From a virus, in the IMG/VR virus record IMGVR_UViG_3300049049_000112, positions 1 through 58,949 of that record: 58,949 bases of DNA; one strand, written 5' to 3'. The notes below the pieces were generated by a model. The model was not told the origin of the DNA. It worked only from the letters and a program-made list of their open reading frames with translations, and did no database searches. Positions 4,291-58,949 of this stretch are shown piece by piece. How positions within the stretch are numbered: the first letter of the stretch is position 1; every line of letters starts with the position of its first letter. The translations under genes were made by a program, and so were the position numbers.

Positions 4291-4299
4291 ACACTAACA
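4291..4299 (-). promoter_or_regulatory. Extended -10 box TGTTAGTGT, 5 nt before ATG 4285 (leaderless)
   Basis: Minus strand reads tgttagtgt-gcgag-ATG. Confidence 0.5.
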
Positions 4300-4301
4300 C
4301 G

Positions 4302-4323
4302 GTAGTATCGTCCGTGCTAGCTT
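4302..4323 (+). promoter_or_regulatory. Late promoter box GTAGTATCG-N4-TGCTAGCTT upstream of the sheath gene
   Basis: Second copy of the 3686 box on the other side of the HNH gene; 35-nt leader with gagggg before ATG 4359. Confidence 0.55.
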
Positions 4324-4358
4324 GTGTATTGACTTTCTACTCCATTTTGAGGGGTCTC

Positions 4359-5678: not shown

Positions 5679-6041
5679 CAGACGCTTCTTCTTTCTCTGG
5701 TTCTCTGACCACTTACGCTTGGCCTCCCTGCGCTTCTCCTGCAACTCAGGAGAAGCAGCTACCACAGCCCGTCTGGCCTCCTTTCTCGCCTGGTAGGCCT
5801 CCGGGTTCTGGGCTTTCCAGCGCGCCATGCAGTCTCTCTGAGACTGCAGCTTCCTCTCCCTGGCAACTGGGTCGCTCTCGTACTTCTTTTTGTCGGCCTT
5901 CCACTGGAGGCGATGGTCGTGCGCCGTCCGCTCTTTCTTGGCGTGGTTGAGGAGGTGCATGCTTTCAAAGCAGCCTCCGTCTACGCACACGCTCAGCCGG
6001 GAGAACGTCGCTTCGATCTCTTCGTGTAGGTCGGTGAACAT
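5667..6041 (-). CDS. Basic Arg/Lys-rich protein resembling the N-terminal regions of the endo VII paralogs but lacking the catalytic motif
   Basis: 124 aa; RERKLQSQRDCMARWKAQNPEAYQARKEARR repeats; TAGTGT box 6 nt before ATG 6041. Confidence 0.5.
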   Translation of the reverse strand: MFTDLHEEIEATFSRLSVCVDGGCFESMHLLNHAKKERTAHDHRLQWKADKKKYESDPVARERKLQSQRDCMARWKAQNPEAYQARKEARRAVVAASPELQEKRREAKRKWSENQRKKKRLLNG

Positions 6042-6058
6042 GTCCCGACACTACAGAA

Positions 6059-6298
6059 CTACTCACGGCGGCGCAACAGGATTCGCTCGTTCGCCAAGTA
6101 GGAAGTGAGCGCATTGATAGCGTCTTCGCTATTCGCGAATCCCGAAGTAGTCGCGCCGGCCAGGACGTACTCCCAGGTACCGTCGTCTTTGCGACGCACG
6201 ACGCCCGCGCGGCCGTCCGTCAGGTTCACCCAAGCCACGCCCGCCACGAGCCGAGAGGTCCAGAGCCAAGCCTGCGCTGTGTAGTACCGGTTGGCCAT
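6059..6298 (-). CDS. Hypothetical protein (79 aa), reverse-strand moron between sheath and tube
   Basis: Intact ORF with ATG 6298 placed 6 nt after a minus-strand TGGTACTCT box. Confidence 0.55.
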   Translation of the reverse strand: MANRYYTAQAWLWTSRLVAGVAWVNLTDGRAGVVRRKDDGTWEYVLAGATTSGFANSEDAINALTSYLANERILLRRRE

Positions 6299-6304
6299 GT
6301 ATCA

Positions 6305-6313
6305 AGAGTACCA
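6305..6313 (-). promoter_or_regulatory. Extended -10 box TGGTACTCT, 6 nt before ATG 6298 (leaderless)
   Basis: Minus strand reads tggtactct-tgatac-ATG; back to back with the plus-strand box at 6322. Confidence 0.5.
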
Positions 6314-6321
6314 CGGCCCTG

Positions 6322-6330
6322 TGCTACTCT
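6322..6330 (+). promoter_or_regulatory. Extended -10 box TGCTACTCT upstream of the tube gene
   Basis: 41-nt leader containing gaaagg before GTG 6372. Confidence 0.5.
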
Positions 6331-6371
6331 TGTAGTAGCCGCTACCCAGCTGTCGGCGAAAGGTACCCAAC

Positions 6372-6809
6372 GTGGCCGCTACTCCTCAGCTCACTATTTA
6401 TGACTTCGACCAAGTTACGGTCGCGCTTGGCCCGATTCTTATTGACGGCTTTCAGGAGGGCGAGGGCGTCACGCTCGAGGTCAAGGACACCTTCACGATG
6501 AAGGTCGGAGCAGACGGCAAAGTCACGCGCTCCAAGACGCTGGACCTCAGCGCCATCGTAACGATCACGGTCATGCAATCCTCGGCAGCGATGGACCTGT
6601 TGGGTGCCCTGCACTTGCTGGACCGCAACGCGCCCAACGGCGCTGGCGTCGTGCCGCTCTACATCCGCGACCGCGGCGGGCGCTCGGTCTACACCGGAGC
6701 CCAGGCCTGGATCGCGAAGGCCCCGGACATCACGTTCGGCAACGAAGCTACGCCCCGCGCATGGATTATTCATGTCGCCCGCCAGAACCGGATCGACGGC
6801 GGCAACTAA
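6372..6809 (+). CDS. Tail tube protein (DUF3277-like by recollection)
   Basis: 145 aa; position after the sheath gene; ILIDGFQEGEGVTLEVKDTFTMKVGADGKVTRS resembles this tube family. Confidence 0.7.
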   Translation: MAATPQLTIYDFDQVTVALGPILIDGFQEGEGVTLEVKDTFTMKVGADGKVTRSKTLDLSAIVTITVMQSSAAMDLLGALHLLDRNAPNGAGVVPLYIRDRGGRSVYTGAQAWIAKAPDITFGNEATPRAWIIHVARQNRIDGGN

Positions 6810-6863
6810 ATCTTGACGGCGGCAACTAGGCGCAGTAGCTTTTGACCGTCCGCGAGGCCAGTA

Positions 6864-6954
6864 CGGAGCTTGCTCCGGAAAACTTCCGCAGGTTCGAATC
6901 CTGCAAGCCTTCGTGGCTTTGGTGTGAGAGGTTGAAACAGGCGGACAAGCCGCC
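6864..6954 (+). other. Run of four hairpins in a non-coding gap, one being a canonical tRNA T-arm sequence
   Basis: cggag-cttg-ctccg (6864-6877); gcagg-TTCGAAT-cctgc (6888-6904); aagcc-ttcgt-ggctt (6905-6919); ggcgg-acaag-ccgcc (6940-6954). I could not fold a full cloverleaf. Confidence 0.35.
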
Positions 6955-6994
6955 AGAGTTGGGCCTGAACAAAACTAAGGCTAACTCTGGCGGC

Positions 6995-7003
6995 TGCTAC
7001 TAT
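6995..7003 (+). promoter_or_regulatory. Extended -10 box TGCTACTAT, 5 nt before ATG 7009 (leaderless)
   Basis: tgctactat-caagg-ATG. Confidence 0.55.
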
Positions 7004-7008
7004 CAAGG

Positions 7009-7689
7009 ATGAAGATCCTACGCAGCCTCATGATTCACGGCGTGGGCGAACAGACCTCCAGCTTTGCTGAGGACGCCCGCTACAACCTGCGCAAGGGGCT
7101 CAGGGAAAAAGGCTGGCAGCTGCACTGCACTCAGGTGCACTGGGCGCCCCTCGCTGACCGCGTGCAGCGCAAGTTCCTGAAGTCCGTCGAGGCCAAGGGC
7201 AGCCGCGGCAACATGACGCAGAAGCTAGTAGTTGGTACGCTGGCGGACGCTCTCATGTACCGGTCCAGCCCCGAGCTGCAGCAGCAGATCTTCCACATCA
7301 TTGACCAGCAGATCTGGATGCTGGGCGAGCCTGTTACTATCTTCGCCCACTCGCTGGGCGGGCTCATCGCGACCGACTACCTACGCGCGCGGCCCAGCTG
7401 CAAGAACGTGAAGCTCGTTACGTTCGGCTGCAACATCGGGCTCTTCACGCTGGGCGCGAACTTCGACTGCCCGCAGCAGCTGCGTAGGCCGAACAGCTGG
7501 GTCAACCTCTACGCGAAGTCGGACATGCTGGGCTTCCCCGTGGCCGTAGACCCCGCCCTGAAGCACGTGCAAGACGTGCAAGTCTCAGTAGGCAGGTGGT
7601 GGCAGGGCTGGACCGGCCTGGCTCACGTTCGATACTGGGATACCGACCGGCTGTGGCGCCGTACCATTCCGAAGCTTTTGGGTATCTAG
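7009..7689 (+). CDS. Alpha/beta-hydrolase fold serine esterase/lipase-like protein
   Basis: 226 aa; IHGVG oxyanion-type motif near the N-terminus; nucleophile elbow AHSLGG (GxSxG); later Asp (KSDMLG) and His (LAHVRYW) candidates. Confidence 0.75.
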   Translation: MKILRSLMIHGVGEQTSSFAEDARYNLRKGLREKGWQLHCTQVHWAPLADRVQRKFLKSVEAKGSRGNMTQKLVVGTLADALMYRSSPELQQQIFHIIDQQIWMLGEPVTIFAHSLGGLIATDYLRARPSCKNVKLVTFGCNIGLFTLGANFDCPQQLRRPNSWVNLYAKSDMLGFPVAVDPALKHVQDVQVSVGRWWQGWTGLAHVRYWDTDRLWRRTIPKLLGI

Positions 7690-12683: not shown

Positions 12684-13154
12684 GTGTTTACTTGGCCATT
12701 GAGGCCGTTCTACTACACGCAGAGTGGCACGAAATCTACTACAGGCTGGTGTAAAATCGAACTCGGCGTCACATTGACCTCCTCTCTGGTGAACCCAGAT
12801 GTAGGGGACCTCGCACTCGAAGACACCGGGCTCGAGGTCGTACGCACCTCTCTCGCGGACGAGGTGGCGCAGCGCTTGCACGTCCGACTCAAGTTCTTCC
12901 GGGGTGAGTGGTTTCTCAACCTGAACGAAGGCGTGCCCTGGTACCAGCTCATCTTCGTCAAGGCGCCCCAGGACCGGGTCATCCGCTTTGTGTTCGGGGA
13001 GGTCATCCGCGGCACCGAAGGCGTGGCCGAGCTCGTCACGCTCGACTACTCCATCAGCAGCACCCGGCAGCTCAGCCTCTCGTTCACCGCGCGCCTCCAG
13101 GACGGTACGTTGCTCCGCTCTTTCGACTACGCCCCGTTCGTCTTGGCGGTGTAG
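12684..13154 (+). CDS. Baseplate wedge protein (gp25/W- or DUF2634-like); start uncertain
   Basis: LKFFRGEWFLNLNEGVPWYQ motif; the first ~35 codons are low GC and contain two tctactac boxes, so GTG 12789 is an alternative start. Confidence 0.6.
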   Translation: MFTWPLRPFYYTQSGTKSTTGWCKIELGVTLTSSLVNPDVGDLALEDTGLEVVRTSLADEVAQRLHVRLKFFRGEWFLNLNEGVPWYQLIFVKAPQDRVIRFVFGEVIRGTEGVAELVTLDYSISSTRQLSLSFTARLQDGTLLRSFDYAPFVLAV

Positions 13155-13160
13155 CGACCG

Positions 13161-13169
13161 TGCTACCTT
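13161..13169 (+). promoter_or_regulatory. Extended -10 box TGCTACCTT, 6 nt before ATG 13176 (leaderless)
   Basis: tgctacctt-gtgagt-ATG. Confidence 0.55.
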
Positions 13170-14351
13170 GTGAGTATGGCGGGACTCACAAGCGCAGGGT
13201 ACGAAGCCAAGAGCCTCGCCGACATTGAAGCAGAGATTGGGGCGGCCGTAAGGGCGGGCATCTCGCCCACGCTCAACACGAGCTCGACGTCGATCCTCGG
13301 TCAAGCCATCGGCGCCACGGCCTCGCAGCTTCGCCAAGTCTGGGAAGCGGGCCAGGACAACTACGCAGCAGCGGACATTGACCAGGCCACGGGCGACGCC
13401 CTCACGGCGCTGTGCAAGCTGACTGGCACCGTCCGCAACGCGGCCACGCCGAGCACCGTGCTGATGACTGTGACGCTGGCAGCGGGCACCTACGCAGCCG
13501 GCAGCCTGATCGTTCACGTAGTAGGCGACGCAACCAAGCGATTCACCAACGACGAAGAGATCACTACTGCCGGCGCTACGCTCACCGGCCAGGCTTTCAC
13601 CTGCGAAGACAACGGCCCCACGCGCGCGAACGCAGGCACGTTGACCGTAATCGCGAGCCCCGTTACCGGCTTCTCTGCCCCAACGAACCCGGCCGAAGCC
13701 GTGCTGGGCCTCGAGGAAGAGACCGACTCCGCCCTACGCCTGCGGCACTCTCAGGAGCTGGCGCGCACCGGCTCGAGTACGGTGGACGCGATCCGCGTTG
13801 ACGTAGACGACGCTGTCGAGGACATCAGCTTCGCGTCCTGCTTCGAGAACGACACCGACGCCACCGTAGACAGTAGGCCTCCTCACAGCATCGAGTTGCT
13901 GGTCCAGGGCGGCACGGACGCGGACGTAGCTGCAGCCATATTCCTGGCCAAGCCTGCAGGTATCCAGGCGTACGGAACGACTACGGTCGTGGTCTCCGAT
14001 ACGCAAGGCAACAACCACTCCATCGGCTTCACTCGGCCTACGGTCATCACGATCTTCATCGACTTGGTACTCACCGTGATCTCGGGGGAGTACGCGGGCG
14101 ACAGCGTCGTGAAGCAGGCTATCACCGACTGGTGCGACGCCAACCTGTCCGTGGGGCACGACGTGATCCGCTCGCGCATCCAGTACATCTGCATGGGCGT
14201 TGCCGGAGTGATTGACGCTGTCGCAGAGATAGGCCTGAGCGCAGGCGCAGGTACAGCCGCAGCCAACTACGTGATCGGCTCAAGAGAGATTGCCAGCGTC
14301 GACACCGCCAACATCGCGATCGTTCAGTCCGTAGTAACCGCGCCCCCGTAA
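13170..14351 (+). CDS. Baseplate J-like protein
   Basis: 393 aa; N-terminal SAGYEAKSLADIEAEIGAAVRAGISPTLNTS...GDALTALCKLTG pattern typical of gpJ; true start is probably ATG 13176. Confidence 0.8.
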   Translation: MSMAGLTSAGYEAKSLADIEAEIGAAVRAGISPTLNTSSTSILGQAIGATASQLRQVWEAGQDNYAAADIDQATGDALTALCKLTGTVRNAATPSTVLMTVTLAAGTYAAGSLIVHVVGDATKRFTNDEEITTAGATLTGQAFTCEDNGPTRANAGTLTVIASPVTGFSAPTNPAEAVLGLEEETDSALRLRHSQELARTGSSTVDAIRVDVDDAVEDISFASCFENDTDATVDSRPPHSIELLVQGGTDADVAAAIFLAKPAGIQAYGTTTVVVSDTQGNNHSIGFTRPTVITIFIDLVLTVISGEYAGDSVVKQAITDWCDANLSVGHDVIRSRIQYICMGVAGVIDAVAEIGLSAGAGTAAANYVIGSREIASVDTANIAIVQSVVTAPP

Positions 14352-23686: not shown

Positions 23687-23716
23687 AAGCTACTACGATC
23701 GTAGTAGATAAGTCAA
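23687..23716 (-). promoter_or_regulatory. Early sigma70-like promoter TTGACT-N18-TAGCTT containing an 18-bp perfect palindrome
   Basis: Minus strand reads ttgact-tatctactacgatcgtag-tagctt, 18 nt before ATG 23668; palindrome ctactacgatcgtagtag at 23690..23707. Confidence 0.6.
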
Positions 23717-25279: not shown

Positions 25280-26622
25280 TGCATGCCTCCCCGGTAACGC
25301 CCCTTGACCAGTACTACGATCTGACGCTTGCCGTCAGCTGCTAAATGGATGTGCGCCTGAACCCAGCCTCCGGGCAAGTCGTTATACCCATGGTCTACTA
25401 CCGCTGTTACTCCTGCTTGGCAAGCGCCATCGAGCATGCCCGGCTGGTGAGAGTGGCCGATACTGACCTTGACCCCGAGCCGCGTGTATCCGATGAACGT
25501 GCCTCTACTACCGTTTGGGCCCTTATCTCCGTGGAACCCGTGCTCTACGTCCAGAAGACGCAAGCTGTCGTTCCGCTTGAGGAACTTGACGGTCTCCGGG
25601 ACCTTATGCCTGCGGGCTTCAGCCTCGAATAGGTTCAGCCACTTGCCTGCGGAAGTGCGGCTCCGCAGGTCGCGAGACTTCATCTCGTGCCAGTACGGAG
25701 CGTTGAGCGGATCTTCCGAGTCTTTGTGCTCTTCCAACCAGCGCTCGAAGTGCTCGTCGTGGTTGGATCGTACTACGTGCGTAGTATGTTTGCCCCAGCC
25801 GCTCACCAGCTTGAGCGCGTCGCAGGCGTTCCGTACCTCTTGCTCGACGCTGTCGAAGCGCCCCTCGAACCGATGGCGACTCGACTTCTTGTGGTGGGAC
25901 CTCGAGCCGAAGTCGAGTACGTCGTGCAGGACGATGTGCTGAGGGCGAACAGCGTCAATGAGCGCCTTGGTCGCATCCAGGGCTTCGAAGTCCTCGTGCC
26001 CCGCGTGCCAGTCGCCGAGCACGAGAGACATGGCCGGGGGCGCATTCTTGACCCCGTTGGGTGTGTATACTTTATCGAGATCTGTGAAGCTGCCGTCCTT
26101 GTTCGCAGTCACGTGGCGGGCGAAGTAGCAGGCGTCTTTGTCGACCTCTACCACCAGCGCCCCGATCACGTGGTGGTGCTCCCCTTTCTTGCCTGCCTTG
26201 CTGGGCGTGTAGTTGGGCACCGTGCACGCGCCCGTGGTCCACATGATGCGGGGCGAACGGCTTGCCGTAGCCACGACCTGCAGCGTGCGCTTGGCGTGGC
26301 CGAAGATGCCCGAGCACTTGCCCAGGAAGCCCTCGAAGCCGGTCAGCGGCCTGTTGGCCGTGGGCTGGATCGAGATGTCAGAGAAGATCTTCAGGTTCTT
26401 GCAGAGGCTCCTGCGCGACGTGGCGAGGTAGGGAGTGATCTCCGCAGCCCACCAGTCGTCCGTCTCTTGCTGCTGAGACCAGCGGGAGGTGGGGTTCTTA
26501 TAGCGCCCTGGCACCACGATCAGCTCGGCCCTGTTGGCCTTGCAAAAGTTCTGCATCGAAGCGAAGAACTTAGGGTTGACCGGCGAGGCATTCTGGGCGT
26601 AGGTGACCAGGTACGTTTTCAT
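25276..26622 (-). CDS. Calcineurin-like metallophosphoesterase with an uncharacterised N-terminal half
   Basis: 448 aa; LGDWHAGHED, HIVLHDVLD, VRSNHDEHF, GFHGDKG, IGHSHQPG motifs. Confidence 0.7.
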   Translation of the reverse strand: MKTYLVTYAQNASPVNPKFFASMQNFCKANRAELIVVPGRYKNPTSRWSQQQETDDWWAAEITPYLATSRRSLCKNLKIFSDISIQPTANRPLTGFEGFLGKCSGIFGHAKRTLQVVATASRSPRIMWTTGACTVPNYTPSKAGKKGEHHHVIGALVVEVDKDACYFARHVTANKDGSFTDLDKVYTPNGVKNAPPAMSLVLGDWHAGHEDFEALDATKALIDAVRPQHIVLHDVLDFGSRSHHKKSSRHRFEGRFDSVEQEVRNACDALKLVSGWGKHTTHVVRSNHDEHFERWLEEHKDSEDPLNAPYWHEMKSRDLRSRTSAGKWLNLFEAEARRHKVPETVKFLKRNDSLRLLDVEHGFHGDKGPNGSRGTFIGYTRLGVKVSIGHSHQPGMLDGACQAGVTAVVDHGYNDLPGGWVQAHIHLAADGKRQIVVLVKGRYRGGMQ

Positions 26623-35168: not shown

Positions 35169-35198
35169 AGACTACGATCGTAGTATCTCGTGAGTCAA
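35169..35198 (-). promoter_or_regulatory. Early sigma70-like promoter TTGACT-N18-TAGTCT with ACTACGATCGTAGT palindrome
   Basis: Minus strand reads ttgact-cacgagatactacgatcg-tagtct, 17 nt (with AGGAGG) before ATG 35151; palindrome at 35171..35184. Confidence 0.6.
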
Positions 35199-38877: not shown

Positions 38878-38909
38878 GAATCATTCGGAGCTCCCCTCAA
38901 GATCACGCG

Positions 38910-38971
38910 GAGCTCCCTCGATCAAAAACTCGAAAACGTTTAGAGCTCCCTCGATCAAAAACTCGAAAACG
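38910..38971. repeat. 29-bp direct repeat x2 (gagctccctcgatcaaaaactcgaaaacg), 4-nt spacer
   Basis: Copies at 38910-38938 and 38943-38971; GAGCTCCC box also at 38888 and 38976; gatcaaaac/gttttgatc inverted pair. Confidence 0.9.
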
Positions 38972-39000
38972 CCCGGAGCTCCCTGTTTTGATCAGGCAGG

Positions 39001-39067
39001 CCCACATCCACCCACATCCACCCACATCCACCCACATCCACCCACATCCACCCACATCCACCCACAT
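39001..39067. repeat. Perfect 10-bp tandem repeat cccacatcca x6.7
   Basis: Six identical 10-nt blocks plus cccacat, read directly from the listing. Confidence 0.95.
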
Positions 39068-39078
39068 GTAGGTATTCT

Positions 39079-39175
39079 GCGCAGTAGCACCTACCTGTAG
39101 TTATACCGAGTAGAATGATTACACTTCCCTACTCAGCCCGACATGTAGTTATACCGCGCAGTAGCACCTACCTGT
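39079..39175. repeat. Permuted repeat pair X-Y ... Y-X
   Basis: X = gcgcagtagcacctacctgt (39079-39098, 39156-39175); Y = tgtagttataccg (39096-39108, 39144-39156). Confidence 0.9.
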
Positions 39176-39178
39176 GGG

Positions 39179-39290
39179 TGGCCCGATTCTTGCAAGGGCG
39201 CTCTGTGCGCAAGCTAGGCGGCACGATCCTTGCAAAGGACGGTGTGCGCTGATGTCAGTGGCCCGATTCTTGCAAGGACAGCTGTAGGTC
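39179..39290. repeat. About 40-bp period repeat x2.5 centred on the palindromic core CTTGCAAG
   Basis: tggcccgattcttgcaagg at 39179 and 39259 (80 bp apart); variant gcacgatccttgcaaagg at about 39221; each followed by (c/g)tgtgcgc in the first two units. Confidence 0.85.
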
Positions 39291-39467
39291 TATCTCTGCT
39301 TTCCAGTCCGGCCGCATACCCGTGCGATCCTTGCGCACACCTTCCTTCCAGACAGTCTTGCCGGACCGTAGACACACAAGAGACCATGCCTCGTAGGTTT
39401 CGCTCTCTCCGCGCACATCAGGGTACATGTATACGCGTTCGCTGCCTTCGGTGTGAATCTTATACAC
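39255..39467 (-). CDS. Hypothetical protein (70 aa)
   Basis: GTG 39467 overlaps the stop of the upstream 43-aa ORF (GTGTATAA); 3' end overlaps the third 40-bp repeat unit. Confidence 0.45.
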   Translation of the reverse strand: MYKIHTEGSERVYMYPDVRGESETYEAWSLVCLRSGKTVWKEGVRKDRTGMRPDWKAEIDLQLSLQESGH

Positions 39468-42591: not shown

Positions 42592-42628
42592 GCACGGGTC
42601 TTTCTGGGCAAGGCCCATGCCAGCTTTG

Positions 42629-42837
42629 TCAGCAAAACCCATGCCAACCTGCCAAGGGCGCAAGCATGAGTGCATGCACATAGAGACATGCTTGGCACAC
42701 CGCTTGCCTAGTTTACAACCGCTTTACACGACCCGCTTGCTCTACGTTGTCGCACACTTGGCGCACAAACCTCACCTAACTCGGAGCCTTCTTTACAACC
42801 GCTTTACAGCCCTCTTCTCAGCAAAACCCATGCCAAC
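42629..42837. repeat. Interleaved direct repeats: a 20-mer x2 and a 17-mer x2
   Basis: tcagcaaaacccatgccaac at 42629 and 42818 (each followed by aagcatg-n-gtgcatg); tttacaaccgctttaca at 42712 and 42792. Confidence 0.9.
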
Positions 42838-42927
42838 TTGTCAACCCAGAAAGCATGTGTGCATGTAGTGTAGTGCAACGTATGGTCATGACCATATGAC
42901 ACCAATGTCATGCAAGCCCACCTGCAC

Positions 42928-42969
42928 CACGACAACGGAGTCATAGCCCACGACAACGGAGTCATAGCC
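42928..42969. repeat. 21-bp iteron-like tandem pair (cacgacaacggagtcatagcc x2)
   Basis: Perfect tandem, followed by cacacaggtcagagct. Confidence 0.9.
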
Positions 42970-43049
42970 CACACAGGTCAGAGCTGGCACAGACTGGCAC
43001 ACCTTGCCTACCTTGCACACCTCTGCTACACAGCGCACCTTGCCTACAC

Positions 43050-43091
43050 CACGACACAGATGTCATAGCCCACGACAACGGAGTCATAGCC
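43050..43091. repeat. Second 21-bp iteron-like tandem pair (variant copy plus perfect copy)
   Basis: cacgacacagatgtcatagcc then cacgacaacggagtcatagcc, followed by cacaggtcagagct; caccttgcctac x2 (43000, 43036) lies between the two pairs. Confidence 0.9.
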
Positions 43092-43199
43092 CACAGGTCA
43101 GAGCTCTCGCCTACTTGCGCACATGTAAACCGAGACCCACACCGGGGTACCTTGTGTGCAAGGCTCGCTGGGTTGGGCTGCCCCTCGGCCCGCTGGGAA

Positions 43200-43246
43200 A
43201 TATTTTTTGAAAAACGAAGGCCTCGGCTCATATTTTTTGAAAAACG
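43200..43246. repeat. AT-rich 17-mer x2 (atattttttgaaaaacg), 30 bp apart
   Basis: Most AT-rich spot I noticed in this GC-rich genome; each copy is followed by (a/g)ggcctcg. Confidence 0.9.
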
Positions 43247-43699
43247 GGGCCTCGAGCGGCGATTCCAGATTCCGAAAGCCGGAACGTAGCAAACTCGATA
43301 CCCTAGCCAGCGGGCTGAGCTGAAGTTCGTAGTCTCGCTGGGAGGCGCTAGAAGGCCCTGACCGAGGCCAAGACGTCCGCACCTAGCGACCCCCTACGGG
43401 GAATCGATTCTAGACCCCGCCACGGAGCGGGAATCACCATCCTCGCCCTCCCTTGGCGGTGAGGCATGCGGTAGTAGCGCCGTAGTCGCCTTCGGCTTAT
43501 CCCTACACAACGTGGTGCCAGCGGAGGAGGTCGAAAACATCAGGTACTGAAGGAAGAGGGCTGGCTGAATGCAGCGCTGGCTCAGCGATAGTCTTCAGCA
43601 ACCGCCTTCGGCATCTGGTGTGGTGCTCCGTCTATAAGAGAAAGGGCGAAGCCGATACACTAATCACGCGCGCATGCGCTTGCTCTCCGCCCTCCTTTT

Positions 43700-43857
43700 T
43701 CACCGGAGCTGCAAGCTTGCTTAGCAGGCCAGTAGTACGCCGCGCGCATGAATATATGCGCTCCGTCCTCCCATATTCATGCGCAGGTACGCCTGGTCTC
43801 CGTTGTCCCTCATCACCGGAGCTGCAAGCTTGCTTAGCAGGCCAGTAGTACGCCGCG
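43700..43857. repeat. 45-bp perfect direct repeat x2 flanking a 12-bp inverted repeat
   Basis: tcaccggagctgcaagcttgcttagcaggccagtagtacgccgcg at 43700-43744 and 43813-43857; gcgcatgaatat (43744) / atattcatgcgc (43783). Confidence 0.9.
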
Positions 43858-43872
43858 ACGCGTGATATATGG

Positions 43873-43901
43873 TTGACTACGAACGTAGTACCGGGTAGTG
43901 T
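43873..43901 (+). promoter_or_regulatory. Sigma70-like promoter TTGACT-N17-TAGTGT with ACTACGAACGTAGT palindrome
   Basis: Followed by AAGGAG and ATG 43920. Confidence 0.6.
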
Positions 43902-43919
43902 TGCTCAAAAGGAGACTAA

Positions 43920-44348
43920 ATGACCGAAACAACAGGCAAGCCCGCGAAAACTCTCACAATGTCCGACATTGCCCGACTTTTGAACAGGGAGGCCACCTAC
44001 ATCAAGCAGTGGCTACTTGATGCGCAGCTCGTCCGCTACAGGACAGACGGCAAAACCCAACTGAATGCCTACGAACTTACGGATCTAGGAAAAGAAGCAG
44101 GCGCCTTTGTCGTAAAAGGGGTGAAGCACTATACCTACCAACACTATGAAATGATTGTGTTTCCCGAGAGCATTCTCCTGCGCATCGAACCCACGCATGT
44201 ACCCGTAAAGAAACCCACCCGAAAGGACGTTGCCGGTAGGGTCGAGCTGCTCGAGGCGCAGGTCAAGAAGCTGGCAACGGAGCTCGCGGACGCCAACGAC
44301 AGGATCAACCATCTGTTCATGCGGATAAACGAAAAGAAGGTGGGCTAA
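43920..44348 (+). CDS. Putative DNA-binding protein with C-terminal coiled coil (paralog A)
   Basis: 142 aa; aligns by eye with the next gene (DIARLL...GK...LTDLG / RISNRV...GK...PTEEG; PTRKD...LEAQVKKL / PTRDE...LEEKVNKL). Confidence 0.55.
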   Translation: MTETTGKPAKTLTMSDIARLLNREATYIKQWLLDAQLVRYRTDGKTQLNAYELTDLGKEAGAFVVKGVKHYTYQHYEMIVFPESILLRIEPTHVPVKKPTRKDVAGRVELLEAQVKKLATELADANDRINHLFMRINEKKVG

Positions 44349-44666
44349 ATGTTTGTAAGCGTTACCAGAATCAGCAACCGAGTCGGCATGACGCGCGATG
44401 CGGTGAACCCGGCGCTCGAGTCCATCGGGCTCCAAACGAGGCTCGTCGAAGGCAAGCGGACCAAGTGGATTCCGACCGAAGAAGGAGCAAAGCACAGCAA
44501 GATCGTCATCGGTACTGACAAGAAGGGGGAGTACCAGATGGTCGTATGGGACGAGGCTGCGGTAGTTGCGAAGCTTGCCAGCTTTGCCCCTCCTACTCGC
44601 GATGAGTTCAATAGCAAAATCGCAGAGTTAGAAGAGAAGGTGAACAAGCTGATAGCCGAAAGGTAG
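44349..44666 (+). CDS. Putative DNA-binding protein with C-terminal coiled coil (paralog B)
   Basis: 105 aa; ATG immediately after the upstream TAA. Confidence 0.55.
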   Translation: MFVSVTRISNRVGMTRDAVNPALESIGLQTRLVEGKRTKWIPTEEGAKHSKIVIGTDKKGEYQMVVWDEAAVVAKLASFAPPTRDEFNSKIAELEEKVNKLIAER

Positions 44667-44757
44667 CAACGATACTTGCGGGTAGTGCCCTTTTCGCTTG
44701 AAGCCGACTATCTATTCCCGTAATACTCTCTCTACGCAACGAACACAGGAGAGAGTG

Positions 44758-45066
44758 ATGAGAAAAGTACGACTTCAAGCGGTAGTGTCGACCCAGGTAG
44801 CGAACAGGCTCAAGGAAGAGGCGGATAAGAGGGGATCATCAGTCTCTGCAGTCCTCGGATTGGCTGCAGAGGCTTTCCTCGCGCCGAAGAAAGCCCCTCC
44901 GATTCCGCAACGTTACGCCACGGAAAGGGAGGTTTTGGAGCTCAAAGAGAAGCTGAACAGGCTACTGCAGGCAACTCCGAGCCTCGCACTAGAAGAAAGC
45001 CAGCCTACAAACCCGAGAGTCAGCAGCGGCATTTATTCGCGTACGGGAAATACTCGAACGGGCTGA
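44758..45066 (+). CDS. Ribbon-helix-helix (CopG/Arc-like) DNA-binding protein
   Basis: ATG 44758 after aggagagag; VRLQAVVSTQVANRLKEEADKRGSSVSAVLGLAAEAFL is a typical RHH N-terminus. Confidence 0.7.
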   Translation: MRKVRLQAVVSTQVANRLKEEADKRGSSVSAVLGLAAEAFLAPKKAPPIPQRYATEREVLELKEKLNRLLQATPSLALEESQPTNPRVSSGIYSRTGNTRTG

Positions 45067-45121: not shown

Positions 45122-45592
45122 ATGGCCGCACCTCCCCTCCCGGACAGAGCGAAAAAGACACGAAGCTTCAAGACTACGATCGAGCCTTGGATGACCCCGG
45201 TAGTCGTCAAAGCGATCGAAGCAGGCATGCCCTTGCACCTCGTAGGCGGCCTCGTAGGAGTTACTCGACGTACGCTGACCTCGTGGCGAGACCTGGGCTC
45301 TACAGAGGGCTGCCCGGAGCCGCTACTCGTAGAGTTCGCCCTTGCCGTGGAGGAGGCCCGAGCGAAGGCGTCCATGGCCGGCGTCCAGCTGATGCAGCAA
45401 CATGCCGCTGTGGACTGGCGAGCGGCCAAGACGCTGCTCGAGGCGCAGGACCCAGAAACATGGGGCACGAAGACGAACATGAAGATCGAGGCGACGGTCG
45501 CCCCCGGCCCGGCCCGAGACCTCAGCAAGCTGACCGACTCCGAGCTCCAGCAGCTCGCGATGCTCGAGACGAAGCTTCTGCCGAGTGGCTAA
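45122..45592 (+). CDS. terS: Terminase small subunit
   Basis: 156 aa; HTH-like VGGLVGVTRRTLTSW, then AAVDWRAAKTLLEAQDPETWG typical of small terminases; upstream of terL. Confidence 0.75.
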   Translation: MAAPPLPDRAKKTRSFKTTIEPWMTPVVVKAIEAGMPLHLVGGLVGVTRRTLTSWRDLGSTEGCPEPLLVEFALAVEEARAKASMAGVQLMQQHAAVDWRAAKTLLEAQDPETWGTKTNMKIEATVAPGPARDLSKLTDSELQQLAMLETKLLPSG

Positions 45593-46046
45593 GCCTCTCG
45601 CAAGGCTGCGTCACACGCAGGCCACGAAGGTCAAGATCTCGGATGCCAAGAAAGGCAGGCCGCGCTCCGCCGAGACCAAGGCGAAGATCAGCGCGGCGCG
45701 GACCGGGCAGAAGCACTCACCGGAGACGATCGCCAAGATCACGGCGAAGCGTCGAGCCTTGGCAGCGATGACCGACGAAGAGAAAGCGGAGCTCGCGATA
45801 CAGAAGCTACGAGCGGAGCAGGCGAAAGTTACCGACGCTCGGGTCAATCGCTGGAAACTCGATCTCATGGCCTGCTCCCGTATCGGGAACGCCCAGCTGT
45901 ACCTCGACGTCAAGCAAAGCGGCGGCTGGCGCTCGAAGCGCGTCATGCGCAAGGCGGACCCGAGAGTATCCGAGGGATGGTGTCACAAACAAGGTAAGGT
46001 CTTGTGGCCTACCCAAGAGAAGGCAGTAGAAGATGGCATCGCCTGA
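45585..46046 (+). CDS. NUMOD3-repeat DNA-binding protein without a recognisable nuclease domain
   Basis: Three tandem S/T-x-E-T-x-x-K-I-S/T motifs (TKVKISDAKKG, SAETKAKISAARTG, SPETIAKITAKR); overlaps both terS and terL. Confidence 0.6.
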   Translation: MAKPLARLRHTQATKVKISDAKKGRPRSAETKAKISAARTGQKHSPETIAKITAKRRALAAMTDEEKAELAIQKLRAEQAKVTDARVNRWKLDLMACSRIGNAQLYLDVKQSGGWRSKRVMRKADPRVSEGWCHKQGKVLWPTQEKAVEDGIA

Positions 46047-47523
46047 AGTTGATGTTGAGATGGTCAAGCGGTACGGCTTTTCGGCGTTCGTCAAGCTGGC
46101 GTGGCACGTCATAGAGGAAGAAGAGCTCGTATACGAAAATCACATGGGTGTAGTTTGTGACCACCTGCAAGCAGTCTCCAGAGGGGAAATCAAAAAGCTC
46201 GTCGTAAATGTTCCGCCAGGCACCTCAAAATCACGACTGTGCTCCGTCCTTTTCAATGCATGGGACTGGATCGAGAACCCTTGGAGAAAGTTTCTCTATA
46301 CCTCTTTCGACGAGAAGCTCTCCCACGAGTTCGCTAAGATCACCATGGACCTTATCTCTAGCGAGTGGTTCCAGGCGCGGTGGCCCCACGTTCAGATCAA
46401 AGGAGACCGCCCTGCGGCAGGGTGGTTCCACACCATCGGTGGAGGGCAGAGGGTCAGTACGATGTTCGGAGGCGGCGCTACTGGCCGTCACGCGCACTTT
46501 CTATTCGTAGACGACCCGCATAAACCCCGCGATCTCGACGCAGGAGGAGAGTCGGCCAAGGCGGTTCTCGACGCAGCATGGAAAGTATGGACGGGTACAT
46601 TCCTACGCCGCGTCGCGAACGCAAAAACGTTCGCCTACGTCTGCATCATGCAGCGCCTTCACGAGGAAGACCTTGCGGGTAAGATCCTACGCAACCCGGA
46701 CGTGGTGCACGTCTCGCTTCCGATGAAGTTCGAGCCGGACCACGCCTGCGTAACCAAGTGGGGCAGGGACTGGCGCACCGAAAAGGACGAGCTCCTCTGC
46801 CCGCTCCGCTTCCCAGCCGAGTACGTTCACGACGTCGAGCACAGCGCCGAGGGCATGACGCCCATGGGCTTCGCGGCCCAGATGCAACAAAGACCGACTC
46901 CCGCCGGCGGCGCTCTGTTCAAGACAGAGTACTTCGCTCAGCGCTGGACCAACCTACCGATCGGCGGGCGGTACCTGATGTCGGTCGACGCCTCGCTCAA
47001 GGACCTGAAGGACTCCGACTACTGCGTGATTCAAGTTTGGTACTATCTTCGTAACGAGTACTACCTAGTAGACCAGGTCCGCAAGCGCATGGCGTTCTCG
47101 GCCACAGTCGACGAGGTCAAGCGCATGAAAGAGACCTGGCCCAAGATCGGCCAGGTGCTGATCGAGGACAAGGCCAACGGCACAGCCATCGTCGACGTCC
47201 TGAAGCAGAACATGGCTGGTGTGCTGGCTGTCAATCCAGAGGGCGGCAAGTACAGCCGAGCGTCGGCCGTCGAGCCGTTCATGCGCGCCATGAACTGCTG
47301 GTTCCCGACCCACGCGTCCTGGATGAACCAGCTGATCGAGGAGCACACGACGTTCCCAGTGGGCTCGCACGACGACACCGTGGACGCCCTGTCGCAGGCG
47401 CTGTTGTTCATGAGCGGCAAGAAGAAGGGCCAGCGCCTGAAGAAGGCCATGGCCGCGGTACGAGCGGGGGCGATGGCAGCTCGGCCAAGCAGGACAGCCC
47501 CGAGTCAGTTCTCTTTTTCTTGA
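46033..47523 (+). CDS. terL: Terminase large subunit
   Basis: 496 aa; Walker A-like VNVPPGTSKS, Walker B HFLFVDDP, MQRLHEEDL, nuclease-domain DSDYCVIQVW and GSHDDTVDAL. Confidence 0.9.
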   Translation: MASPEVDVEMVKRYGFSAFVKLAWHVIEEEELVYENHMGVVCDHLQAVSRGEIKKLVVNVPPGTSKSRLCSVLFNAWDWIENPWRKFLYTSFDEKLSHEFAKITMDLISSEWFQARWPHVQIKGDRPAAGWFHTIGGGQRVSTMFGGGATGRHAHFLFVDDPHKPRDLDAGGESAKAVLDAAWKVWTGTFLRRVANAKTFAYVCIMQRLHEEDLAGKILRNPDVVHVSLPMKFEPDHACVTKWGRDWRTEKDELLCPLRFPAEYVHDVEHSAEGMTPMGFAAQMQQRPTPAGGALFKTEYFAQRWTNLPIGGRYLMSVDASLKDLKDSDYCVIQVWYYLRNEYYLVDQVRKRMAFSATVDEVKRMKETWPKIGQVLIEDKANGTAIVDVLKQNMAGVLAVNPEGGKYSRASAVEPFMRAMNCWFPTHASWMNQLIEEHTTFPVGSHDDTVDALSQALLFMSGKKKGQRLKKAMAAVRAGAMAARPSRTAPSQFSFS

Positions 47524-47679: not shown

Positions 47680-47714
47680 TTGACGTATCAACCTTGGAAC
47701 TCGGTTGTGTCGCA

Positions 47715-47723
47715 TGGTAGTAT
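47715..47723 (+). promoter_or_regulatory. Extended -10 box TGGTAGTAT, 5 nt before ATG 47729 (leaderless)
   Basis: tggtagtat-gcggc-ATG. Confidence 0.55.
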
Positions 47724-47728
47724 GCGGC

Positions 47729-49255
47729 ATGGCCGAGTCTCCTACTTTCGCGAACAAGATCTCAACTCTCAAAGGGCTCGGTAAGTCCCGCACGGCTCAA
47801 GCAGTCATCGACGCGTTCGCGAACCAGCTCACCGGAGCAGGCACGTCTCGGTCGAAGGTCGCAGCCGGCGAGTACGTCAACGCCCCCCTGTTGACGCCCG
47901 AGGAGCTCGAGGTCCTGTTCGCGGACCACGACCTGGCCTCGATCATCGTCCAGCGCCCAGTCGACGACGCCCTGCGCGACGGCTTCTGCATCGAGAAGGA
48001 GGGAGGCACAGCCGACGAGGACAAGGACAAGGCGAAGGCCCTGAAGGACGCCTTCGATAAGCTCGACGCGGACCCTACGGTCGGCAGCCTCATTCACCGA
48101 GGCGGGGTCATGGGGCGCCTGTTCGGCGGGGGAGGGCTCATCATAGGGGCGGCAGGCGCCGGCTCGCTCGAGAGCCCTCTGGACGACGAGAAGGTCAAGA
48201 AGCTCGAGTTCCTGCACGACTGGGATCGGCAGGACATGGTGGAGAACACCTACCACCTGGACGGGACGGTAGAGACCTACCTCTGGACCCGCCCAGCGCG
48301 GGGCAACAGAAGCTGGCTGCCGGTCAAGGTGCACGCCTCTCGGCTCATTCAGTTCCCCGGCGCGACCACCACGAACCGCAAGCGCAACCAGAACCAGGGG
48401 TGGGACTTGTCGGTCCTGCAGCGCGTTTATGCGACCCTGAAGAGCTTCGACAGCATGTTCTCGAGCACGGACGCCATGTTCGCGGATGCGAGCCAGGCCG
48501 TCTTCAAGCTCCAGGGCCTGATCGATGCGCTCGGCGAGTCAGACGGCTCCGGCGAGAACGACGTCCGCACCCGCCTGCAGCTCATGGACATGATGCGCTC
48601 TTCGGGCAAGGCGATCATGCTCGACGCAGGCGACGAGAACGGAGACGGCGCTGAAGACTTCTCCACCGTCGACAGAGCGACGCTAGGCAGCCTCGACGGC
48701 ACGATGCAGCAGTACTACATCCGCCTGGCCGCCGCCGCAGGTATGCCGCTGACGGTACTCCTCGGCATGAGCCCGGCGGGCATGGACGCCACGGGCGAGT
48801 CGGACATGATTCTGTACTACAACCGAGTAGACATCTACCGGAAGAAGGTACTCGAACCTCGCATTCTGCGCATCGTTCGCATGCTGGCGCGCGAGCTCGG
48901 AGACGAAGACCCCAGCGAGTGGAAGATCTCATGGCCTGAGTTGGCTAGACCCAAACCCCTCGATGTAGCCACAGAGGCCAAGATGAAGGTCGACGCCTGC
49001 GTGGCGCTGGTCACCGCCCAGATTGCGCTCCCGGAGGAGGTCGCGCTGTCTATGAGCAAGATCGCGCCCACTCTGGGGTTGACCTTGGACAAGGAGTCTC
49101 GCCTCACGGCACTGAAGGACGGCCTCAAGGAGATCGCGAACCGGGAGATGACTGGACCGGGGGCGCTGCCGGAAGAGGAGCCGGAGGGAGTAAGCCCTCC
49201 TACGAAGTCCTCAGAGCGAAAGACGCCGTCGAAGGCGGCTCGCAAACAGGTGTAG
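47729..49255 (+). CDS. Portal protein (DUF1073-like)
   Basis: 508 aa after terL; EELEVLFADHDLASIIVQRPVDDALRDGF and overall pattern recalled from the DUF1073 portal family. Confidence 0.8.
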   Translation: MAESPTFANKISTLKGLGKSRTAQAVIDAFANQLTGAGTSRSKVAAGEYVNAPLLTPEELEVLFADHDLASIIVQRPVDDALRDGFCIEKEGGTADEDKDKAKALKDAFDKLDADPTVGSLIHRGGVMGRLFGGGGLIIGAAGAGSLESPLDDEKVKKLEFLHDWDRQDMVENTYHLDGTVETYLWTRPARGNRSWLPVKVHASRLIQFPGATTTNRKRNQNQGWDLSVLQRVYATLKSFDSMFSSTDAMFADASQAVFKLQGLIDALGESDGSGENDVRTRLQLMDMMRSSGKAIMLDAGDENGDGAEDFSTVDRATLGSLDGTMQQYYIRLAAAAGMPLTVLLGMSPAGMDATGESDMILYYNRVDIYRKKVLEPRILRIVRMLARELGDEDPSEWKISWPELARPKPLDVATEAKMKVDACVALVTAQIALPEEVALSMSKIAPTLGLTLDKESRLTALKDGLKEIANREMTGPGALPEEEPEGVSPPTKSSERKTPSKAARKQV

Positions 49256-57731: not shown

Positions 57732-58373
57732 GTGACTTGGGCAACTACAAAAGAGGCGTGTCGGCTCGCCATCGCTGCCGCTCTTGACCTGGACGACTAC
57801 ACCGGGGCGGACGGCGTAGTCGGCGGCATTCACAAAGTAGAATGGGCGAACAAGCAAAAGGCTGTTCGCTACCTGAACAACGACAGCGCCTGGGCGGACC
57901 TGCGGATGGGGGCAATCGTAGCCCAGGGCACAGACGAGATCCGTTACGAGTACGTGGCCGGCGCGACGGCAGCGCTCAGCCGCAACGTGCCGACCTACGC
58001 AGGCAGGCGCTTGTTCTCGGTGCAGGTTCTGATCGGCGTGGAGTCGCAGGAGGACGCCGAGGAGGCCGTAGGCACGCTGGCGGGCAGGCTCCGCACTCGC
58101 CTACGTCGAGTCGAGATCCTGGCCATCCTGCAAGACGCAGGCGTGGCCTTGCGCAGCATCGGCCCTACCGTGGACGCCGACTACCGGAACAGGGACGGGC
58201 ACTGGGTCTCGGCCTCGATCACGGAGATCTTCCTAGCCCGCACCGAGCAGGACACGGACGAAGACAACGCGGGCGACTTCATCACCGAGACCTCGGGCAC
58301 GAGCGAGCTCACCCGGACAGACGGCACGACAGCCGAAGGGGACTTCGAGGTCGTCTATGTGGAGCCGCAGTAG
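57732..58373 (+). CDS. Putative neck/tail-terminator protein
   Basis: 213 aa; assigned by position after the gp10-like gene; no diagnostic motif recognised. Confidence 0.45.
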   Translation: MTWATTKEACRLAIAAALDLDDYTGADGVVGGIHKVEWANKQKAVRYLNNDSAWADLRMGAIVAQGTDEIRYEYVAGATAALSRNVPTYAGRRLFSVQVLIGVESQEDAEEAVGTLAGRLRTRLRRVEILAILQDAGVALRSIGPTVDADYRNRDGHWVSASITEIFLARTEQDTDEDNAGDFITETSGTSELTRTDGTTAEGDFEVVYVEPQ

Positions 58374-58395
58374 GTAGTATCGCCCGTGCTATCCT
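58374..58395 (+). promoter_or_regulatory. Late promoter box GTAGTATCG-N4-TGCTATCCT, 6 nt before ATG 58402 (leaderless)
   Basis: gtagtatcgcccgtgctatcct-gggagt-ATG. Confidence 0.6.
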
Positions 58396-58401
58396 GGGAG
58401 T

Positions 58402-58755
58402 ATGAGTGACGCCCCGGTAAAGATTGACCAGCTCGGCGCACGGATGGCTGCCGTTACTACCGGCACGCAAGAGTCGATCGACTTGACGACGCTGGGGCGT
58501 CGATGGATCAAGGTCTGGGCGGACCAGGACTTCTACTACTTCATGGCGCCCGGTTCGAGCGTGGTGACGTACGCCATGGACACGGCAGCGGCGGACAAGG
58601 CGCTCGGCTCGCTCATTCCGTTCGAGTGCGCCAGCGGCGCTGCGGGGCAGCCCGTTCTCGTGGACCCGAAATACCCTTGGCTGCACGTCAAGGCGAAGAC
58701 GGCCACAGCGCAGATTCAGATCAAGACGACGTCTGACGCGCAGAGCGACGAGTAA
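58402..58755 (+). CDS. Hypothetical virion-module protein (117 aa)
   Basis: Intact ORF with a leaderless-type start. Confidence 0.55.
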   Translation: MSDAPVKIDQLGARMAAVTTGTQESIDLTTLGRRWIKVWADQDFYYFMAPGSSVVTYAMDTAAADKALGSLIPFECASGAAGQPVLVDPKYPWLHVKAKTATAQIQIKTTSDAQSDE

Positions 58756-58758
58756 CCC

Positions 58759-58949
58759 GTGGCGCGCTTCTCCCCGTCCGTCGAGCGTTTTCGACGCCCT
58801 CGAGCGGTGTCGGTGTACCGCCGTGGCGAGCGCATCGCGCCTCCCGAGGAGGTGGAGTTCGTGATCGTCTCTGGGGGCACAGGCGTGACCGCCACCGAGG
58901 TCACGATCGACGGTCTCTCTTCGCCGGACCTCGGCGGCGGGACGTTCGC
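58759..58949 (+). CDS. 5' part of the 85-aa junction-spanning ORF (continues at 1..194)
   Basis: GTG 3 nt after the upstream TAA; the frame continues through the 127-nt overlap. Confidence 0.5.
   Translation, partial: MARFSPSVERFRRPRAVSVYRRGERIAPPEEVEFVIVSGGTGVTATEVTIDGLSSPDLGGGTF
58823..58949. repeat. Second copy of the 127-nt terminal overlap
   Basis: Identical to 1..127. Confidence 0.95.

Follow-up and report, generated by a model that had tools for sequence, protein, structure and literature searches.

A repeat-rich non-coding gap best described as a cis-acting control region of the packaging operon in an uncultivated phage lineage

What is the role of a long, repeat-filled gap that holds no convincing gene and lies just ahead of the packaging genes of a phage? 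The question is raised by positions 42592-43919 (hereafter the gap) of the viral record IMGVR_UViG_3300049049_000112, whose whole stretch of 58,949 nt is referred to as the window. A first-pass annotation had proposed the gap as a replication origin of the theta type, with a cos/pac role in packaging as a secondary idea in view of the nearby terS gene. Comparison with six other phages that possess a syntenic gap, recovered through their TerL and TerS homologs, favours the secondary idea, since the gap heads the terS-terL packaging operon in all seven phages. The gap is, in our view, best described as a cis-acting control region of this operon, and not as an origin. Our more detailed reading is tentative: a composite, DNA-level region heading the packaging/late operon, in which a conserved core would serve as a pac-type terminase site, variable repeats would form arrays for KilAC-like proteins, and a promoter at the 3' end would be under operator control. 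What can be stated firmly is the presence of the promoter and its operator, the conserved core with its spacing, the phage-specific turnover of the repeats, and that the gap shows neither a gene nor any hint of a structured RNA.

Synteny provides the link with packaging. A non-coding gap of 0.8-1.3 kb stands ahead of the packaging operon in 7/7 phages, with zero to three small DNA-binding genes between it and terS. In the closest relative, L037/L227 (TerS 72% identical; gap at L037:6284-7412), a 234-aa KilAC-like fusion protein and a ribbon-helix-helix (RHH) protein are encoded in this interval. Two KilAC-like genes and an RHH gene occupy the same position in L229 (TerS 60%; gap from ~334 to ~1157; KilAC-like products of 135 and 107 aa) and in L018, the NCBI metagenome-assembled genome contig JALYEH010000029.1 (TerS 57%; gap 5418-6524); a 73-aa open reading frame (ORF) called at 1158-1379 of L229 may be spurious. 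A single KilAC-like gene intervenes in L020 (TerS 44%; gap 6915-7688), and L145 (TerS 32%; gap 6263-7137) carries a 358-aa ORF and a 171-aa ORF that appears RHH-like from its sequence. No gene intervenes in L021 (TerS 42%; gap 1-1179, at a contig end), where the gap adjoins terS itself. The ORFs to the left of the gap show no mutual similarity in the five phages in which they are comparable, and the packaging operon is found to the right in all seven; hence the element appears to travel with the packaging genes. Cis sites and their trans partners stay together in mosaic phage genomes, and, given the linkage seen in seven phages, a packaging site is the reading that we favour. Across the gap, the more than ten metagenome contigs that carry this same phage show 100% identity, and therefore offer no usable variation.

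Within the gap, a core of ~70 bp is conserved (43140..43209, + strand). In the window, it consists of CACCGGGGTA at 43140-43149, a 31-nt spacer, CCCCTC at 43181-43186, and a 12-nt spacer that leads to the start of an A/T tract, while the consensus reads CACCGGGGT(A)-N31/32-CCCCTC-N12-AATATTTTTTG(A/T)AAA. Motifs, order and spacing are kept in six of the seven phages, L021 possessing a looser variant. The first spacer is N31 in the window, L018, L020 and L229, and N32 in L037 and L145; in L229, CCCTCC replaces CCCCTC. The motif CACCGGGGT is the only 9-mer common to the six regions compared. The core is kept at TerS identities of 32-72% and is loosest in L021 (42%), and its conservation also tracks overall divergence. 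The N31 and N12 spacers vary in sequence between phages, and folding of the core as RNA, on both strands, gave inconsistent predicted folds and unremarkable z-scores. For these reasons, we read the core as a probable DNA-level site of fixed geometry, and an RNA hairpin or intrinsic terminator at this position was rejected.

The A/T tract that closes the core is present twice in the window, as the doublet ATATTTTTTGAAAAACG at 43200-43216 and 43230-43246 (element 43198..43246, + strand). The first-pass annotation had singled it out as the most AT-rich spot of the genome, which holds at two scales: with AT contents of 16/17 and 15/17, the two copies are the top two 17-mers of the genome, and the top 50-nt window is also found here. 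It does not hold at 30, 60 or 100 nt, where the doublet is not among the six least stable windows and other places are more AT-rich or less stable. A tract so short and sharply bounded is better suited to bending or protein binding than to melting. L037, L018 and L020 each have one copy of the element, and the version in L145 has diverged. Two copies are found in the window (spaced by 30 nt), in L021 (41 nt; L021:253-326) and in L229 (44 nt; L229:775-845). As the duplicated units differ, these represent three independent events, and their recurrence in three phages out of seven is a hint of selection in favour of two copies. Two promoter-related readings of the element were discarded. A sigma-70 match (TTGAAA-N16-CATATT) is due solely to the duplication in the window and has no counterpart in relatives. 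The element fits the Escherichia coli UP-element consensus, and this reading was rejected because no -35 or -10 follows.

For ~300 nt downstream of the core, conserved islands are set in GC-rich DNA (43284..43558, + strand). In the window, these are ACGTAGCAAACTCGA at 43284, GACGTCCGCACCTAGCGACCC at 43372, AATCGATTCTAG at 43402, CGCCACGGAGC at 43418, CGGTAGTAG at 43469, TACACAACGTGG at 43504 and AAGGAAGAG at 43550; across phages, the islands follow each other in the same order as ACGTAGCAA..., (G)ACGTCCGCACCTAGCG, AATCGATTCTAG, CGCCACGG, GCAATCGG and CGGTAGTAG. Conservation of this order in four to five phages, coupled with a lack of coding potential, is what a gene for a structured non-coding RNA might produce, within 43260-43640 or at another place in the gap. 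In that interval, the first-pass annotation had seen many short GC hairpins and suggested such an RNA. The + strand of 43260-43640, however, folds with z = -1.0 and the - strand with z = -0.3, no more than composition gives. Across four phages and both strands, z-scores range from -1.1 to +0.7; L021 alone reaches -4.5, and does so on both strands. A search of the gap against Rfam returned no family at the gathering score and two sub-threshold, chance-level matches at E<=10, and ARAGORN found no tRNA or tmRNA genes. The RNAalifold consensus reached -4.6 kcal/mol for six sequences and -11.5 kcal/mol for four, and its covariation terms were positive, i.e., a penalty. Of the base pairs of the minimum-free-energy fold that changed between the window and L037, 26 of 77 (34%) still pair, close to the ~37% expected by chance (6 of 16 base combinations can pair). 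In L145, moreover, one island, CCGCACCTAGCG, has another location, ~1 kb upstream of the core and beyond a gene. The structured-RNA reading is largely refuted by these computations, and we consider it highly improbable.

Nor does the gap appear to hide a gene, in agreement with the first-pass annotation. Start-codon ORFs in 42592-43919 are all of 94 aa or less, and those present are built from repeats. Six-frame tblastn searches of the gap against the relatives gave matches in all frames over the same DNA blocks, which argues for conservation at the nucleotide level; a hidden ORF was rejected on both counts.

At its 3' end, the gap terminates in an ordinary, operator-controlled promoter (43873..43919, + strand), with a -35 TTGACT (43873-43878), an N17 spacer and a -10 TAGTGT (43896-43901) that lies 18 nt before the ATG at 43920; a ribosome-binding site, AAGGAG, occupies 43909-43914 on the same strand. 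The pattern TTGAC-N16-18-TAnnnT occurs eight times in the genome, including 43873, all but one of these sites being at or near gene boundaries. The promoter is retained in L037/L227 as TTGACT-ACTACTGCGGTAGT...-TAGTGT, and in L145 a TTGACG-N17-TAGATT promoter is overlapped by three GGTACCAGTGGTACC palindromes. In the window, the promoter spacer harbours the palindromic operator ACTACGAACGTAGT (43876-43889). The exact form ACTACG-NN-CGTAGT is found at 43876-43889, 35171-35184 and 23692-23705, in each case in the spacer of a TTGACT...TAGnnT promoter, and once inside a gene (25772-25785). The second of these promoters (35198, - strand) precedes a 183-aa ORF adjoining the primase-helicase gene, while the third (23716, - strand) precedes PolA; the shared palindrome points to one regulator controlling replication and packaging genes together. 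Half-sites of ACTACG-NN-CGTAGT were also observed at 38186 and 39635. Bacteroidetes-type, sigma-54 and CtrA/CcrM readings of the gap were considered and dropped, as their expected features are lacking.

With such a promoter at its end, the gap could be a purely transcriptional boundary between early and packaging genes, at which C-rich RNA would load Rho and the repeats and islands would tune the 43873 promoter, with no role in packaging or replication. No TTGAC-type promoter was found between 42592 and 43872 on either strand, and a consensus-like promoter at 42072 reads into the gap. The top strand of 42700-43100 is C-rich and G-poor, like a Rho loading site: the 80-nt windows at 42769 and 43000 rank third and fifth in the genome for excess of C over G, after a first rank held by a second repeat region (module I, see below), with counts of C32/G8 at 42769 and C34/G11 also measured in the gap. 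The gaps of L018 and L145 begin equally C-rich and G-poor, yet this bias is absent from those of L020 and L021, and no conserved intrinsic terminator was found. An operator-bearing promoter with half-site-like repeats nearby, and three small DNA-binding proteins encoded next door, would be at home in such a boundary; a 70-bp core of invariant spacing, ~700 bp from the promoter, is left unexplained by it. A transcriptional boundary is plausible and compatible with the packaging reading, and unlikely as the sole purpose of the gap.

The repeats tell a different story from the core, as they differ in every one of the seven phages compared. In the window, 177 positions of the gap lie in repeated 12-mers, against a genome median of 0 for same-size windows and 0.15 for shuffles, and in 1.3-kb windows the gap ranks first in the genome for repeat density, with module I, at ~38.9 kb, second. 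The repeats that the first-pass annotation had listed were all recovered at their positions, and their motifs are confined to the gap within the genome. The left part is a C-rich, G-poor block of direct repeats (42602..42865, + strand) with 25-mers at 42602, 42626 and 42815. It comprises a 51-nt repeat (42626-42676 and 42815-42865, + strand, 82% identity) that includes a 20-mer present twice (42629 and 42818), one 51-mer copy being ~90% conserved in L037, and a 23-nt TTTACA repeat (42706-42728 and 42786-42808, + strand) that includes the exact 17-mer TTTACAACCGCTTTACA at 42712 and 42792. Further on, a 21-bp unit forms two tandem pairs (42928-42969 and 43050-43091, + strand), in which the 21-mer CACGACAACGGAGTCATAGCC starts at 42928, 42949 and 43071 and a variant copy at 43050. 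Each pair is followed by CAGGTCAGAGCT (42974 and 43094), the pair module spanning 42928..43105 on the + strand. Between the pairs is found CACCTTGCCTAC, at 43000 and 43036 with a degenerate third copy; as 15-mers (GCRCACCTYKSCTAC), the three are spaced at 18 nt. Closer to the promoter, a 113-bp tandem duplication (43661..43857, + strand) contains 84-nt copies at 43661-43744 and 43774-43857 (83% identity), each with an exact 45-mer (43700 and 43813). These copies enclose a 12-bp inverted repeat, GCGCATGAATAT / ATATTCATGCGC (43744-43755 and 43773-43784), and each copy of the duplication carries AGTAGTAC, which resembles an operator half-site. With respect to short sites, 42592-43919 contains no GATC, where 6.7 would be expected from the genome-wide density, and shows a mild excess of GANTC (8 against 3.6 expected).

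Comparison with the closest relative suggests how this repetition arose. L037 has one homologous 21-mer only (CACGACACGGATGTCATAGCT), so that the 21-mer array of the window arose by local duplication. As L037 also possesses one A/T element and no 113-bp duplication, the second copy of which falls in a gap of the pairwise alignment, much of the repetition in the window represents recent local duplication, with units of 21 bp, 30 bp, 113 bp and ~120 bp. Upstream of the core, where the window has its 21-mer four times, L037 carries an 18-mer four times in two pairs and a 29-mer twice, L018 a 43-mer three times, L229 repeats of the TTGTACA type, L020 GTAACA three times, L021 a 19-mer twice, and L145 GTATGGYCA three times.

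Perfect or near-perfect local duplications that are missing from the closest relative, and independent duplications in each phage, are also what a mostly neutral spacer would gather through slippage and duplication, the promoter alone being functional. Such a spacer would not be expected to retain a core, an A/T tract and ordered islands in phages whose TerL proteins are only 53-65% identical, nor to be kept at 0.8-1.3 kb in compact genomes, nor to see its A/T element duplicated three separate times. We regard this explanation as improbable.

The genes on either side place the gap in its context. The window is a complete circular phage genome of 58,822 bp, as indicated by the identity of bases 1-127 with 58823-58949 (an end overlap of 127 nt), and has a GC content of ~61%. 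Genes on the + strand run from ~38.2 kb through the junction to 17.2 kb, in the order small early genes, packaging, head and tail; those on the - strand (17.4-38.1 kb) include genes for an integrase, an ATP-dependent ligase, PolA, a helicase, a PD-(D/E)XK nuclease and a 954-aa primase-helicase. An attP reading of the gap is unlikely, given the 25 kb that separate it from the integrase gene. No DNA similarity to GenBank phages or PLSDB plasmids was found for the window, TerL is at most 35% identical to that of any GenBank phage (~31-35% for its distant relatives), the best GenBank phage matches of the capsid protein, T1-like siphophages of Klebsiella and E. coli, reach ~28% identity, and no protein match to the primase-helicase was found among GenBank phages. 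The phage is a member of an uncultivated lineage with no close sequenced relative.

To the left, the gap is bordered by a 149-aa ORF (phrog_24784). To its right, on the + strand, lie genes for a 142-aa KilAC/ANT-like protein with a sub-threshold winged helix-turn-helix (HTH) match (43920-44348), its 105-aa KilAC/ANT-like paralog (44349-44666), the RHH protein (44698-45066), an HTH-type TerS (phrog_4102; 45122-45592), a 153-aa NUMOD3 protein (45585-46046) and TerL, with its Terminase_6C domain (46033-47523), followed by the portal gene (47705-49255). As paralogs of a single family, the 142-aa and 105-aa ORFs both have a coiled coil in their C-terminal part; in L227, they are fused into a single 234-aa ORF (L227:6890-7594). 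Four of eight family members gave an ANT/KilAC Pfam match (best E = 5.4e-6) and a match to phrog_63, "anti-repressor Ant". The 142-aa protein is an orphan in both large protein searches and has no PDB relative by sequence; its single-sequence AlphaFold model has a predicted local distance difference test score (pLDDT) of 50. TerS homologs share an N-terminal HTH (weak Pfam HTH_23 and HTH_Tnp_1 matches) and a conserved TL..W helix, and neither TerS nor TerL has a homolog among PDB sequences. Between the window and L227, the KilAC-like proteins are 40-41% identical, compared with 71% for the RHH protein, 72% for TerS and 61% for the NUMOD3 protein; the KilAC-like paralogs diverge about twice as fast as these neighbours. 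From this arrangement we infer a correspondence, in which the repeats, as the fastest-changing DNA, go with the proteins that change fastest, and the core, islands and operator, as conserved DNA, with the conserved proteins. As regards the NUMOD3 gene, it overlaps both terS and terL, its product gave no match to a Pfam nuclease domain, and a homolog is found between terS and terL in four of the five relatives in which this interval is fully sequenced (L227, L018, L020 and L145). The protein looks like a fixed terminase accessory and not a stray homing endonuclease.

How might such a region operate? The host-type promoter TTGACT-N17-TAGTGT would drive the two KilAC-like genes, the RHH gene, terS, the NUMOD3 gene and terL, and the operator in its spacer, being shared with two replication-gene promoters, would let one phage regulator gate all three; our guess for this regulator at the palindromic operator is the conserved RHH protein. 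The 70-bp core (CACCGGGGTA-N31-CCCCTC-N12), together with its A/T tract or tracts, would constitute a protein-assembly site of fixed geometry, recognised by equally conserved machinery, for which the HTH-type TerS is the likeliest candidate, possibly with the NUMOD3 protein. As a pac-type site, the core would provide bent DNA for terminase assembly and receive the initial cut of headful packaging. The phage-specific repeats, including the 21-mers, would be arrays of sites for the fast-evolving KilAC-like paralogs encoded just downstream, and may grow and shrink by local duplication. More speculatively, the C-rich, G-poor untranslated left half may also stop read-through from early genes in a Rho-dependent manner.

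Headful packaging is weakly suggested by the Terminase_6C domain of TerL, by its B054-like relatives, and by the circular assembly. The distant GenBank relatives of TerL include B054-like Listeria phages, which are reported to be circularly permuted (PMC6033974). Assignment of the core as a terminase site is itself tentative, the odds being somewhat against it, and several considerations weigh on that side. In the window, ~2 kb separate the core from terS, a greater distance than is seen in well-studied pac phages, and the contig ends that fall in the gap coincide with repeats longer than the assembler k-mer and are no evidence of termini. The headful argument draws on TerL relatives of ~31-35% identity, with no PDB homolog by sequence. 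A gap of 0.8-1.3 kb exceeds the need of a pac site and a promoter, and ~300 nt of ordered islands have no role in the scheme. Finally, the layout of repeats, A/T tract, autoregulated promoter and DNA-binding gene also fits an iteron origin.

Known systems offer instructive parallels to the packaging reading. The pac of SPP1-family phages consists of TerS-binding boxes and bent A-tract DNA upstream of terS and is bound by an HTH-ring TerS (PMC4737164). A fixed-spacing core with a short A/T tract and nearby specificity repeats matches the logic of both this site and lambda cos. Like pacL-pacC-pacR of SPP1, the gap heads a terS-terL operon, contains repeated boxes and A-tract or bent DNA, has an HTH-type TerS and has promoters embedded or adjacent. 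In contrast, our core is separated from terS by ~2 kb and as many as three genes, the region exceeds the SPP1 site four- to fivefold in size, and the two share no sequence similarity. The lambda cos site (cosQ-cosN-cosB, with an IHF bend between terminase-binding R sites) is alike in having a conserved element at a fixed distance from an A/T-rich bend, with phage-specific protein-binding repeats adjoining, upstream of the small-terminase gene, and with separable conserved and specificity parts. The TerL found here is not of the GpA family, however, no IHF consensus is present, and the genome assembles as a circle. In P1 pac, clusters of short direct repeats flank a central conserved segment on both sides, as they do here, although the P1 site has Dam-methylated GATC hexamers and lies inside pacA, while the gap lacks any GATC. 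Lambdoid operators and the L5 stoperators resemble the recurrence of one short palindrome in several phage promoter spacers, including that at 43873; only three or four copies exist in the present case, and the binder is a guess.

Does the gap nevertheless house an origin, as the first-pass annotation had proposed? The repeats would then be iterons for the primase-helicase, whose gene lies 5.4 kb from the gap, or for the two tandem winged-helix-like proteins encoded at 43920 and 44349, the A/T doublet would unwind, and the 43873 promoter would be autoregulated. The order of elements does resemble plasmid- and lambda-type origins, with 21-bp-phased repeats, an A/T tract, an inverted repeat plus operator promoter, and a DNA-binding gene. 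Phage-specific repeats by a conserved A/T element are the expected product of co-evolving initiator-iteron pairs. The fusion of the two DNA-binding paralogs into one 234-aa two-domain protein in L227 has a parallel in two-domain Rep proteins, and the minimum of the cumulative GC skew lies at 44220. Most of the features that lend themselves to examination fail, however. The 21-mer is found once in L037 and other relatives carry unrelated repeats, while the A/T tract is 17 nt long and less stable DNA exists in the genome at 30-100 nt. No DnaA, CtrA or IHF consensus was found in the gap: TTATCCACA (one mismatch allowed), WATCAANNNNTTR and TTAA-N7-TTAA gave no match, with the reservation that the consensus sequences of the host may differ. 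The proposed initiators match KilAC/ANT and not Rep families; they are small DNA-binding proteins that are not recognisable as Rep proteins. Linkage is to packaging and not to replication genes, and L021 has no DNA-binding gene before terS. The skew minimum at 44220 is largely produced by the C-rich repeats themselves, and GC skew was for that reason rejected as evidence of an origin. Set beside known iteron origins (lambda ori; plasmid RepA, RepE or pi systems; the SaPI ori), the gap shares direct repeats of ~21 bp in helical phase near an A/T tract and an adjoining DNA-binding gene behind an inverted-repeat promoter; it differs in its unconserved array, its A/T tract that is too short and not especially unstable, its lack of DnaA boxes, its KilAC/ANT-like neighbours and its packaging linkage. 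An origin of this kind seems unlikely. More doubtful still is an undescribed type of phage origin, or an origin/packaging hub, made up of the core and A/T tract with replaced arrays, on which KilAC/ANT-like tandem winged-helix initiators would act like plasmid Rep for a phage with its own polymerase and primase-helicase.

A further argument against an origin in the gap comes from module I, which is found next to the primase-helicase gene, is conserved as well, and makes an equally good or better candidate. Module I is a non-coding repeat region in the early + strand region (38880-39350), presumably the "module I" of the first-pass annotation, and lies ~0.75 kb from the start codon of the divergent primase-helicase gene. 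It contains a 33-mer twice, CCCACATCCA eight times, a 49-mer twice, and GGCCCGATTCTTGCAAGG-like sites ~40 nt apart. The CCCACATCCA run, with C42/G4 in 80 nt, is the strongest window of the genome for C over G, with G3N7 runs on the other strand. A motif related to module I is found in 54-nt tandem repeats at a contig end of L018 (L018:1-108), and the GGCCCGATTCTTGCAAGG repeats recur in that phage. We regard module I as a candidate for an origin, no less plausible than the gap in this role, or for an early control region.

In kind, the gap represents ordinary phage biology within a very novel lineage. The 43140-43246 interval offers a short, concrete target for locating the start of packaging or replication in this group. 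An invariant core next to arrays that are replaced from phage to phage, beside fast-evolving DNA-binding proteins, shows specificity switching as a clean example from nature. The case also cautions against taking "repeats plus an A/T run" as an origin. The pattern CACCGGGGT-N31/32-CCCCTC-N12-A/T tract may be used as a signature for spotting members in metagenomes. A scan of metagenomes with the core pattern gave 37 loci, a single one of them (L037) being a real relative, and one of IMG/VR gave two hits, both due to chance; among 160 loci fetched through TerL-profile scans of GTDB genomes and IMG/VR, the core was found in none.

The gap also accounts for the tendency of assemblies of these phages to end shortly before the terminase genes. 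Breaks in Logan contigs are found at 42969 and 43828, which are the ends of repeats longer than k = 31; these breaks are accordingly assembly artefacts and not genome ends, and hold no evidence on termini. Repeated breaks in repeat-rich DNA upstream of the packaging genes were observed across the phage group, at L021:1, L024:1, L144:1, L005:1 (window 43828) and the ends of L015 and L016 (window 42969). The start of L024 consists of CGTTTCCGATTT tandem repeats and a ~130-nt direct repeat; this contig also encodes a TerL of 681 aa, longer than in the other phages, and has a 1024-aa gene with intein-splicing and LAGLIDADG domains at L024:12023-15097.

Outside the gap, a 30-42-nt element, GGTAGTATCGCCCGTGCTAnCYTGTGAGTAT, recurs intergenically in the structural-gene region (3673-3714, 4296-4330, 13135-13176 and 58361-58402), and at least two of its copies run right up to a start codon (13170 and 58402). 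Its role may be that of a late promoter or of a translational element, and positions 43469-43496 of the gap are a weak look-alike of it.

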